Of a DNA stretch of 64,000 nt, positions 21,454 through 23,393 are shown piece by piece. The notes under the pieces are model-generated. The model was not told the origin of the DNA, did no database searches, and saw nothing but the letters and a program-made list of their open reading frames with translations. Both the position numbers and the translations under genes were made by a program. Each line of letters begins with the position of its first letter. The stretch's first letter is position 1. Origin of the DNA: Candidatus Melainabacteria bacterium (GTDB lineage: Bacteria; Cyanobacteriota; Vampirovibrionia; 2-02-FULL-35-15); the NCBI GenBank assembly GCA_023250155.1, contig JAHFBG010000003.1, forward strand, positions 102,040-166,039, given 5' to 3'.

Positions 21454-21526
21454 CTCAAACACCTTTCTAAACATCTTTTCAGTTAGTCTTCCTGTTTGAG
21501 TGTTTTGCCTGCTTGGATGATAACTG
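21454..21526. repeat. direct repeat copy A (59 bp perfect, 73 bp imperfect) downstream of ATPase gene
   Basis: taaacatcttttcagttagtcttcctgtttgagtgttttgcctgcttggatgataactg identical to 22769..22827; encodes displaced UDG C-terminus ...TGRLTEKMFRKVFEGDSLWIL*. Confidence 0.85.
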
Positions 21527-21532
21527 ATTGTA

Positions 21533-22720
21533 CTAGACAAACAATTTATTAATTTCCTGCCATGGGATAGCAAAAATATTTTCATCAAGTTTAAGTTTTC
21601 TTGGTGTTTGACAAACCAAGTAACCGAGTTTTGTATTATTGTATTCTGATAAAAAAACTTTTAAATGCTTAATGTCTGATTTTGTTGGTGAGTCAGTCCA
21701 TTTTATTTCTATGGGAATATAAGTATTTTCAATATCTAAAACCCAATCTACCTCAGGTCCATCAGGGTCACGCCAAAAAAAGACTCTTGACCTTTTATGT
21801 GAAAGTCTTGAATATCTTATAAGCTCAAGACCAATAAACTGCTCAAATAATTTTCCAAGCATCTCTCTTGGTTGTTTTATTCCTTCTCTTGCTGCAACCC
21901 TTCTTACCCCTAAATCAAAAAACAAATACTTTTGTGACTTAGTTAATTTCTTTCTTGTTTTACTTTTAGTAATGGGAGTAATCTTTTCAATAATTAAACA
22001 ATCTTCAAGTATTTGATAATAAGAAGCAATTGTAGTATGAGAAACACCAATTTCTTGAGATAATTTTCTTAGGTTAATAATATTGCCTGATTCAGAAGCA
22101 GCCAACTCTATAAATCTAGCAAAAGGTCCTAAATTTCTAACAATAGCTTCTGCTCTTATTTCTTCTTCTAAGTAAGTCGTAATATAGGATTCTAGTTCCT
22201 TTTCTTTTTCATATGCATCTTTGACTAACAGTATCCCTGGTAAAGAACCGTACATTATCAACTCATTTAGATTATATGAATCTAATTCATTAAGCACTAA
22301 AGGATCAAGTCTAGATGCAATTACTCTTCCAGGAAGCAGATTTACATTTTGTCCTCTTCTTAGTTTTCTTGCTGATGATCCTGTTAGTATAAAACTTGCT
22401 TTTTTATTGTCAATAATATCTTGAACTACATCAAGTATCTCTGGTACTTTTTGTACTTCATCAATGACAATTAAAGGATTTGTCTTTTTTTGTTCAATAG
22501 ATAGAGCTTCAATCTCAGAATAAAGAAGCTCTGGATTTTTTTCATAGCGTTGTCTTACATCAGGCCTTATAAGTGAAAGAAATAAGTCATTCCCAAAGTG
22601 TTTAATAAGAGTTGTTTTTCCTGTTTGCCTTGGGCCAAGAAGTAAAATACTTTTCCCTCTTTTTATTTCTCGCTCTATCTCTTTTTCTAGTAGTCTTGCT
22701 ATGTATTGCATGCACTCCAT
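21533..22720 (-). CDS. AAA ATPase, DUF4143 family (paralog 2), inserted in 3' end of UDG gene
   Basis: Walker A LLGPRQTGKTTL, Walker B VIDEVQ; C-terminus NIFAIPWQEINKLFV; start trimmed to Met14 of listed ORF. Confidence 0.8.
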   Translation of the reverse strand: MECMQYIARLLEKEIEREIKRGKSILLLGPRQTGKTTLIKHFGNDLFLSLIRPDVRQRYEKNPELLYSEIEALSIEQKKTNPLIVIDEVQKVPEILDVVQDIIDNKKASFILTGSSARKLRRGQNVNLLPGRVIASRLDPLVLNELDSYNLNELIMYGSLPGILLVKDAYEKEKELESYITTYLEEEIRAEAIVRNLGPFARFIELAASESGNIINLRKLSQEIGVSHTTIASYYQILEDCLIIEKITPITKSKTRKKLTKSQKYLFFDLGVRRVAAREGIKQPREMLGKLFEQFIGLELIRYSRLSHKRSRVFFWRDPDGPEVDWVLDIENTYIPIEIKWTDSPTKSDIKHLKVFLSEYNNTKLGYLVCQTPRKLKLDENIFAIPWQEINKLFV

Positions 22721-23393
22721 TATCGTCGAAAATAGAGGACATGTCAACCGCCTTCTCAAACACGTCCTTAAACATCTTTTCAGTTAGTCTTCCTGTTTGA
22801 GTGTTTTGCCTGCTTGGATGATAACTGGATATTAAAATGTGTGGCAAATCTTTTGAATTGTAAATAGCGCCATGGGAAAACTTAAAATAGTTTTTATTAT
22901 AATTTTTTATTTTGTATACATTAAATAACCATTTTAAATATCCATCAAATGCAATTTTTCCAAGAGCAACTACTATTTTTAAATTTCTTAGCAACTTTAA
23001 TTCTTCTATTAAATATGGAAAACAGTTGTCAAGCTCTTTTGGAGTAGGCTTGTTTTGAGGTGGTGCACAGCGCCCCATAGCAGTTATATAACAATTTTTT
23101 AATTTTAAACCATCATTGATATCTATAGACTCAGGCTTATTGCAAAGCCCGACATCATAAAGTACTTTATACATAAAGTTTCCAGAGGAATCACCTGTAA
23201 ACATTCTCCCAGTCCTATTTGATCCAAATCGTCCTGGCGCAAGCCCTAAAATTAAAATCTCTGCATTTATATCTCCAAAGCTTGGAACTGGCTTACACCA
23301 GTAGCTTGGATATTTTTCCTTAATTTCATTTATGTATTTAACTAAGCGAGGACATTTGGTGCATTTAGTGATTTTGTTTTGTAACTCAATCAT
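22602..23393 (-). CDS. uracil-DNA glycosylase, family 4, with altered C-terminal tail
   Basis: CTKCPRL...GLAPG...GRMFTGDSSG...HPSRQNTQTGRLT family-4 motifs; about 50 extra C-terminal residues created by ATPase gene insertion. Confidence 0.75.
   Translation of the reverse strand: MIELQNKITKCTKCPRLVKYINEIKEKYPSYWCKPVPSFGDINAEILILGLAPGRFGSNRTGRMFTGDSSGNFMYKVLYDVGLCNKPESIDINDGLKLKNCYITAMGRCAPPQNKPTPKELDNCFPYLIEELKLLRNLKIVVALGKIAFDGYLKWLFNVYKIKNYNKNYFKFSHGAIYNSKDLPHILISSYHPSRQNTQTGRLTEKMFKDVFEKAVDMSSIFDDNGVHAIHSKTTRKRDRARNKKREKYFTSWPKANRKNNSY
22755..22827. repeat. direct repeat copy B inside UDG coding sequence
   Basis: identical 59-bp core to 21468..21526; encodes UDG motif YHPSRQNTQTGRLTEKMF. 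Confidence 0.85.

Follow-up and report, generated by a model that had tools for sequence, protein, structure and literature searches.

A repeat-bracketed ATPase-nuclease cassette at the 3' end of a uracil-DNA glycosylase gene of a Melainabacteria bacterium

This study concerns a DUF4143 ATPase gene that lies in the 3' end of a uracil-DNA glycosylase (UDG) gene of Candidatus Melainabacteria bacterium (assembly GCA_023250155.1, contig JAHFBG010000003.1, positions 102,040 to 166,039). This stretch of 64,000 nt is called the window throughout and all positions are counted within it. The ATPase gene and its promoter form a compact cassette between two copies of a sequence that encodes the end of the UDG. 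Related units were found at many other loci, about a third of them between repeats that are usually copies of other gene ends, and this clade of DUF4143 ATPases behaves as a cassette and looks mobile. The features of the locus, all of which are on the minus strand, are collected in Table 1.

The glycosylase-ATPase locus

The two copies of the repeat differ at 4 of their 73 positions and have one gene in between, exactly as the first-pass annotation had described them. The perfect 59-nt core of the downstream copy is at 21468-21526; this core occurs exactly twice in the whole window, and dinucleotide-preserving shuffles gave no match to it. All 4 mismatches fall within 6 nt (AAGGAC versus AGAAAG, which encode KD versus RK) and 9 identical nt (VFE) lie beyond them, giving each copy a layout of 59 perfect, 6 divergent and 9 perfect. 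Within the UDG gene the repeat takes up codons 190-213. Its folding is no stronger than that of shuffled sequence, whichever strand is taken (z -0.8 and -0.03). Tandem accretion is not seen in the window, which has only these two copies.

A source of metagenome type and a perfect core near common k-mer sizes could point to an assembly artefact, in which a k-mer that occurs twice leads to a collapsed or chimeric join, as had been considered at first. However, both repeat copies and the same junctions are present in two MEGAHIT contigs from two other ENA samples, L001 and L002 (the loci compared are numbered with the prefix L), which are 99.5-99.9% identical to the window here and were assembled independently with a k-mer of 141 nt, a length that exceeds the repeat. 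The same gene order is also found in a third ENA sample. Because two independent contigs of this kind have both copies, the repeat is not an artefact; misassembly is excluded at this locus and the chance that it created the arrangement is negligible.

Table 1. Features of the UDG-ATPase locus, with positions in the window
Feature	Position	Strand	Remarks
UDG-superfamily glycosylase, native-like part, residues 1-213	22755..23393	-	Pfam PF03167; PDB match 2D3Y; family-5-like
Chimeric UDG tail, residues 214-263 and stop	22602..22754	-	Encoded by the cassette promoter and by the initial 108 nt of the ATPase ORF in another frame
Displaced UDG tail GDSLWIL and stop	21430..21453	-	Joined to the gene body it would make a UDG of 220 aa; putative original tail
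Repeat copy A (attL-like), inside the UDG ORF	22755..22827	-	Encodes SYHPSRQNTQTGRLTEKMFKDVFE; perfect core 22769-22827
Repeat copy B (attR-like)	21454..21526	-	Encodes SYHPSRQNTQTGRLTEKMFRKVFE; begins 6 nt past the ATPase stop
Inserted cassette, 1228 nt	21527..22754	-	Between the repeat copies: 7-nt spacer, promoter with palindrome, ATPase ORF, 6-nt trailer
Cassette leader	22709..22747	-	-35 TTGACA 22747-22742, 17-nt spacer, -10 GATAAT 22724-22719, 7 nt, ATG 22711-22709
AAA_14 and DUF4143 (PD-(D/E)XK) ATPase-nuclease, 392 aa	21533..22711	-	Pfam; PADLOC candidate PDC-S01

The UDG open reading frame (ORF) runs from 23393 to 22602 and encodes 263 residues, with the UDG domain of Pfam complete over residues 37-214. 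The enzyme had at first been assigned to family 4, and this assignment has to be revised. Its best PDB match is 2D3Y (E 5.1e-54; query residues 7-211 against chain residues 9-209 of 219), which we take to be the family 5 uracil-DNA glycosylase (UDGb) of T. thermophilus. The family 4 structure 1UI0 matches at only E 5.5e-7, and the family 4 models of NCBIfam stay below their cut-offs (TIGR00758 with 70.8 versus 125.3 bits and NF040953 with 68.8 versus 250). The motifs GLAPG and HPS are visible in the alignment. Judged by these comparisons the window UDG is family-5-like and not family 4.

Most UDG homologs are 217-260 residues long, with the stop 10-16 residues past a conserved MF and an end that follows the consensus MFKxVFEKAxxYxx. 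The window UDG extends 55 residues beyond MF. The first-pass annotation had proposed a foreign tail of about 50 residues that overlaps the ATPase start, and such a tail was found when the ORFs were translated. It is predicted to be disordered, the AlphaFold2 model being confident to about residue 222 and having a predicted local distance difference test (pLDDT) score below 50 for residues 224-263. The tail matches an alternative frame of the ATPase 5' region in L129, and alignment of the cassette leaders places the codons for its residues V-D-M-S-S-I-F-D-D-N in the cassette promoter. Only the codons for K and A (AAGGCG, 22754-22749) lie between the repeat and the cassette unit. We considered KAVDMSS as native UDG sequence and dropped this, since V-D-M-S-S is the translation of the conserved -35 region of the cassette.

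On the other side of the ATPase gene, the UDG 3' fragment that ends at 21430 reads SYHPSRQNTQTGRLTEKMFRKVFEGDSLWIL and then a stop, and the 52-codon ORF that holds the second repeat copy ends there as TEKMFRKVFEGDSLWIL and a stop. This stop overlaps the stop of the convergent gene 20914-21435. The UDG and ATPase ORFs themselves overlap by 110-119 nt, depending on the start codon. In the gene tables of L001 and L002 no gene is called between citrate synthase and the ATPase, and the UDG was probably missed there on account of this overlap. Gene annotation can thus lose host genes that have received an insertion of this type.

The ATPase ORF ends at 21533 and starts at either ATG 22720 (395 aa) or ATG 22711 (392 aa). 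It matches PF13173 (AAA_14, E 3.2e-22) and PF13635 (DUF4143, E 2.6e-33) as well as the PDC-S01 models of PADLOC (PDLC04790, E 4.7e-67; PDLC04789, E 7.9e-60). The Walker A motif GPRQTGKTT, the Walker B motif DE(V/I)QK and the nuclease residues D325, E338 and K340 are invariant in the alignment. The protein combines an AAA+ ATPase with a winged helix and a PD-(D/E)XK nuclease, and it belongs to the candidate defence genes of type PDC-S01. DUF4143 is described as a PD-(D/E)XK family of unknown function (PMC3424549), and PDC-S01 as the fourth most common defence candidate, a widespread single-gene system that is unvalidated (PMC12988326). No transposase domain was found in the protein, for which Pfam gave only AAA-type and DUF4143 matches and NCBIfam gave none. 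The AlphaFold2 model (mean pLDDT 84) has a fold that matches Orc1/Cdc6, RuvB, RFC and MuB, which are generic AAA+ relatives, and the fold search did not decide the mechanism.

The insertion of a gene-sized segment, as claimed at first, is borne out by the relatives of the window, which are Melainabacteria. L003 and L004, whose UDG proteins are 78% and 74% identical to that of the window, both keep the order prpD, prpB, citrate synthase and UDG and have no ATPase after the UDG. The UDG is directly followed by a convergent gene of 1374 aa in L003 and by a tetratricopeptide repeat (TPR) gene in L004. What lies past the UDG is different in each of the three genomes, which marks the UDG end as a breakpoint. 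Tight packing at the UDG end is also found in L003, where the orthologous 59 nt have 5 synonymous differences from the window. None of the other ATPase loci has an adjoining UDG and none of the 80 UDG loci has an adjoining ATPase. The closest relatives of the cassette are 73-75% identical and are located after clpB and beside aspS, among housekeeping genes; no integrase was found within 6 kb of these two. One ATPase in the protein collection, P0123, is 94% identical to the cassette ATPase.

The cassette unit and its repeats at other loci

The extent of the unit becomes apparent when about 75 homologous loci are aligned on the M-x-Y start codon. A leader of 46 nt aligns ungapped in 65 distinct loci, with the form aGAATtTtG-TTGACA-N17-GATAAT-N7-ATG, and its mean information is 1.05 bit per position, as against 0.05 bit upstream of -51. 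Across the homologous units there is no conservation past the ATPase stop codon. In the window the leader motif is present once and is the top promoter-like site (22747-22719), a near-consensus promoter of the sigma-70 type with 11 of 12 positions matching. Since the ATG at 22711 is only 7 nt past the -10 box, the mRNA is probably leaderless. The cassette has 31.7% GC and 17.6% GC at third codon positions (GC3), which is host-like, the GC content of the window being 32.7%.

The same limits are seen in four pairs of units that are 87-93.5% identical and sit in unrelated flanks (L095/L116, L123/L140, L110/L121 and L100/L106). Identity within these pairs is level along the unit and drops abruptly to background at about -50 and at 1 to 8 nt past the stop. 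The cassette has no inverted repeats at its ends, and loci without flank repeats have no short target duplication at the ends of the unit. One subfamily (L092, L113, L119 and L132) has an extra conserved 3' tail of about 85 nt, with a sequence ending in GCAGAAT, and this motif also precedes the leader of the unit.

Within the leader is an imperfect palindrome (22713-22739) that overlaps the -10 box and has its centre at about 22726, or -15 from the start. On average 8.9 of 14 positions are complementary around this centre, compared to about 4 at neighbouring centres. The outer arms covary between loci L083-L162 (CACTCC/GGAGTG, AGCTCAA/TTGAGCT), and in L084 and L126 the palindrome is perfect, with arms of 13-14 nt. 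It is probably an autoregulatory operator for the winged helix of the cassette's own protein, and a role in mobility is possible.

Two more AAA_14 and DUF4143 genes of the PDC-S01 type are present in the window, at 17871-19112 on the plus strand and at 62665-63897 on the minus strand, and their proteins are 23-28% and 43% identical to the cassette protein, respectively. The conserved leader is absent from both, and the gene at 17871-19112 is also without a flank repeat.

Loci for the study of flank repeats were collected by ATPase similarity, with flanks of 3 kb, and the 600 nt upstream of each distinct unit were compared by blastn with the 600 nt downstream. The repeat-plus-ATPase arrangement that the first-pass annotation proposed to seek elsewhere was found in this way, with direct repeats at 17 of 56 distinct units, inverted ones at 3 of 56, and direct ones at 7 of 164 size-matched control ORFs, whose matches were mostly 67-81% identical. 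The only high-identity matches among the controls belong to two Fic genes, one at L107 2457-3527 between 151-nt direct repeats that are 95% identical (L107 2257-3818), and a RhuM and Fic gene at L087 5700-6710 between 198-nt direct repeats that are 90% identical (L087 4237-7057). When the downstream search was confined to the first 60 nt past the stop, an exact match of at least 10 nt was found in 11 of 49 units, and in 2 of 49 and 0 of 49 controls.

The sequence of the repeat is different at every locus. Its length ranges from 26 to about 330 nt and its identity from 68 to 97%, or from 79 to 97% when one weak case (L135) is excluded; a perfect core with edges rich in mismatches is often seen, as in the window, L112 and L099. 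The repeat consists in most cases of the very last part of a neighbouring gene with the stop codon, the gene being on either strand, and both copies are in frame with a stop. In L112 both copies read SYK and then stop, one with TAG and the other with TGA, and stops are likewise kept in L134, L094, L150 and L085. The 37-nt repeat of L085 preserves the end of an ABC permease gene and the start of the next gene, and in L083 a 14-nt exact match to the end of clpB reads on to AKAGS and a stop in both copies (TCATGA versus TCTTAA). Apart from clpB and the ABC permease gene, the gene ends that served as sources include those of thiolase, epimerase and histidine kinase genes. The mismatches fall 20, 19 and 45 times on the first, second and third codon positions, numbers that are small. 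This range of lengths, the bias to third positions and the stops kept in both copies do not agree with a simple target-site duplication, which had been the initial explanation of the repeat.

In the 11 best loci the downstream copy begins 0-19 nt past the stop and the upstream copy ends -12 to 161 nt before the leader, which is how an ORF with a recombination site behind it would be laid out. The flank repeats of L126 and L141 may be unrelated repeat elements such as repetitive extragenic palindromes (REP). Additionally, repeats of 125-185 nt with several strong hairpins and no Rfam match flank cassettes in L141 (1038-1695 and 4833-5016) and L103 (4279-4439 and 5908-6069); they may be small RNAs, REP-like elements or recombination sites.

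Self-comparison of all loci gave many segments of 0.7-3 kb that are bracketed by repeats around ATPase units, some of them in arrays. The array of L139 (180-4630) has four in-frame copies of the end of an NAD-epimerase gene. In L119 (780-4130), an ATPase, one toxin-antitoxin (TA) pair of the RelE/ParE type and another TA pair are set apart by four copies of a thiolase end, of which the outermost two are intact, with 7 synonymous and 3 non-synonymous codon differences between them. Three gene-end copies each are found in L099, L147 and L087. Cargo of the arrays includes a small aspartyl protease gene, and further DUF4143 ATPases are cargo in L103 (162-nt repeat, 96% identical) and L115. Other bracketed cargo consists of AbiEii with a helix-turn-helix protein, Fic, RhuM-Fic, ORF6N and a methyltransferase, and the 144 neighbouring ORFs contain 14 DUF4143, 4 AbiEii and 4 Fic genes. 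Five array loci gave no Rfam match at the gathering threshold. In L113 the segments 1-319 and 2356-2680 form a 328-nt repeat that is 93% identical and takes in the 3' end of the ATPase ORF; two cassettes of one subfamily are therefore arranged in tandem here, at a distance of about 2.3 kb.

The first-pass annotation had suggested that DUF4143 ATPase genes are mobile cassettes. For this clade the recurrent repeats, the unrelated flanks and the sharp ends of the unit support a mobile cassette. No observation points to the ATPase itself as the mover, and Fic, AbiE, TA and methyltransferase genes are bracketed in the same way.

Proposed integration between gene-end alleles and its rivals

The repeat pairs resemble attL and attR sites that were built from two alleles of a gene end, and the arrays suggest accretion. 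On balance we lean towards an att-like or Campbell-type integration, into the last codons of the UDG gene, of a self-contained cassette of about 1.23 kb that arrived with a copy of the target gene end. An incoming and probably circular DNA would carry a remnant of a UDG end (KDVFEKA at its close) followed by the cassette unit, and this remnant would recombine with the resident UDG end within the 59 identical nt. The two 73-nt repeats would then act like attL and attR. The UDG body would run through copy A into the cassette sequence and yield the 263-aa protein with its disordered tail, and copy B would be stranded with the resident tail GDSLWIL and its stop 1.3 kb downstream. Recombination between the repeats would excise the cassette and restore a UDG of 220 aa. 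Starting from the anatomy of the locus, the insertion, its recurrence and the arrays, all of which are observed, we infer the circular intermediate, the identity of the original tail and the recombinase.

The perfect core beside a divergent tail, together with the 5 synonymous differences in L003, suggests that the donor was closely related or that gene conversion followed later. Candidates for the recombinase are the host RecA, a recombinase acting in trans and the nuclease of the cassette. RecA is plausible for repeats of 100-330 nt and not for those of 14-37 nt. The nuclease is possible, but it does not account for the Fic, AbiE and TA cassettes. As for the displaced sequence, which the first-pass annotation took to be the original C-terminus, the tail of the second copy (RKVFEGDSLWIL and a stop) is plausible as the original UDG end on its length (MF+12) and frame.

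Several observations weigh against integration between gene-end alleles. One is at the tail itself, where the upstream VFEKA fits the consensus of the UDG family better than the VFEGD of the supposed original. An empty site was not found either. The genome scan for such a site gave two Melainabacteria only, L003 and L004; the UDG nearest to that of the window in the protein collection is 80% identical to it, with none above, and the closest citrate synthase from outside the window is 90% identical. No excised form or circular junction was found, and the terminal overlap that would indicate a circle is absent in 32 whole contigs. A recombinase or integrase is absent among the ORFs of at least 150 aa within about 10 kb in the window, and Phage_integrase accounts for only 2 of the 144 neighbouring ORFs. 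About 70% of the units have no detectable repeat. At 14-37 nt, some repeats (L083, L085) are short for RecA, and because the repeat sequence differs at each locus, one site-specific enzyme cannot explain them all. Codon differences between repeat copies are about equally often synonymous and non-synonymous (34 vs 36). Some fragment copies have frameshifts (L091 and the middle copies in L119), and part of the repeat divergence must therefore be plain decay.

An alternative that we regard as unlikely is that the cassette moves itself. Its own AAA+/PD-(D/E)XK protein would nick the target at variable distances and gap filling would produce long and variable target duplications, whose copies would differ later by mutation or by allelic recombination with cassette-free relatives. 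The invariant ATPase and nuclease residues, the sharp unit ends in unrelated contexts, the near absence of integrases and the dominance of DUF4143 ATPases among the neighbours all fit this idea, although sampling by ATPase similarity biases that abundance. It is also favoured by repeats that come to within about 22 nt of the unit at each end (window, L085, L112, L155 and L158), by repeats of 14-37 nt that suit RecA poorly and by the conserved 5' palindrome, which could serve as a recognition site. However, Fic, AbiE, TA and methyltransferase cargo without a nuclease has the same kind of repeats. A random staggered cut would not be expected to let the repeat ends coincide with the stops of flanking genes, the mismatches are concentrated near the edges of the repeats and at third codon positions, and the upstream spacer varies from 0 to 160 nt. 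The cassette also lacks terminal inverted repeats and a known transposase domain, and there is no short target duplication in the repeat-less loci.

The tandem accretion and gene-end direct repeats that are recognised hallmarks of integrase-bearing elements (PMC5704250; 10.1101/2020.12.28.424599), the arrays in L119, L139, L099 and L147 and the two integrases among the neighbouring ORFs could instead point to a decayed prophage, integrative and conjugative element (ICE) or integrative and mobilizable element (IME) at the UDG 3' end. Deletions would have left one cargo gene and its att sites, which is a cis-mobilizable element (CIME) in the strict sense. Such decay should leave variable debris, yet the same promoter-plus-ORF unit stands within a few nt of the repeats at several independent targets, with only 7 nt and 6 nt between unit and repeats in the window. 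No integrase fragments were found within about 10 kb in the window, and close relatives of the cassette were not found on plasmids, phages or IMG/VR contigs, where the best matches are 38%, 29% and 29% identical. A remnant of this kind seems quite unlikely to us. It is less likely still that the locus arose from a one-off local rearrangement in which foreign DNA was captured by homology-facilitated illegitimate recombination or template switching, with duplication of 73 nt of the UDG. These processes can leave a duplication around a templated insertion, synteny past the UDG is broken in every relative, and the GC and GC3 of the cassette match the host. But the same unit boundaries are met again at many independent targets, and the pattern occurs in arrays; it is this recurrence that makes a purely accidental origin improbable.

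Surrounding genes, related systems and significance

Directly upstream of the UDG on the minus strand is a methylcitrate-cycle cluster (23390-26867) with a 2-methylcitrate synthase, named from the annotations of close homologs, and a putative prpB (methylisocitrate lyase) and prpD (2-methylcitrate dehydratase), both identified by sequence recognition. On the other side, the plus-strand ORF 19704-21029 encodes a cysteine-rich protein of 441 aa with a hydrophobic N-terminus, in which an 18-nt periodic repeat (20244-20567) gives a long Pro-Thr tract (TPTPTP to EVSPTP). The overlapping ORF 20914-21435 (173 aa) is also cysteine-rich, and neither of the two has a Pfam match. Farther away, two neighbouring ORFs on the minus strand, 27332-28246 and 28243-29322, share a 38-nt direct repeat at their 5' ends (28209-28246 and 29282-29319, 92% identical); they have no Pfam match and are probably tandem paralogs.

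Parts of what we describe resemble known systems. Att repeats at gene ends, elements without an integrase and tandem accretion have been described for CIMEs of the ICESt1/ICESt3 family (PMC5704250), and att-flanked islands with accretion for tycheposons (10.1101/2020.12.28.424599). Like CIMEs, the loci here have arrays separated by gene-end copies (L119, L139, L099, L147) and no integrase inside the element. Unlike in CIMEs, the repeats here often enclose a single promoter-plus-ORF unit and less than 25 nt besides, repeat and target differ from locus to locus, integrases are rare nearby, and no conjugative or phage partner was seen. The likeness to integron cassettes and to clusters of attC sites lacking integron-integrases (CALIN arrays) lies in the single ORF, the site that starts right after the stop, arrays with TA and defence cargo, and presumed circular intermediates that are mobilised in trans. 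Here, in contrast, the repeats are coding gene ends and not attC hairpins, IntI was not found within about 10 kb, and the cassette has a strong promoter of its own.

Another parallel is phage 21 and e14, which reportedly integrate into icd and bring a substitute 3' end of the gene with them. Both cases have two copies of a coding gene end with mainly synonymous differences, both stops kept and one copy displaced. Those elements are kilobases long, have their own integrase and restore the gene end faithfully, whereas in the window the UDG has gained 50 foreign residues in place of a restored end. Free-standing homing endonuclease genes are similar in being nuclease genes with their own promoter, located by or in conserved host genes and patchy among relatives. 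Homing, however, leaves no flanking direct repeats, and non-nuclease cargo has the same repeats here. The protein has the domain architecture of PDC-S01 (COG1373), in keeping with its strong match to the PADLOC profile. In the papers that we found on DUF4143, COG1373 and PDC-S01 there is no mention of mobility, of a conserved leader or of gene-end repeats in the flanks. Att repeats at gene ends, accretion and the PDC-S01 family are known, and what those papers do not describe is a bounded unit of promoter, operator and ORF, its recurrent bracketing by gene ends, and integrase-poor arrays with TA, AbiE and Fic cargo.

Few unexplained genes are as common in bacteria and archaea as the AAA_14/DUF4143 genes, and these are candidates for defence mainly by their location. 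A bolder proposal, to which we give little credence at present, is that recombination is carried out by the PDC-S01 ATPase-nuclease itself, in a new class of minimal mobile elements with a single gene, made up of a promoter, an operator and a leaderless ORF. If this were true, such elements would insert at gene ends and create long and variable target duplications, and part of the abundance of PDC-S01 would be due to selfish spread rather than to defence. The cassettes and arrays described here offer a concrete picture, open to testing, of the way in which small defence islands might assemble where housekeeping genes end.

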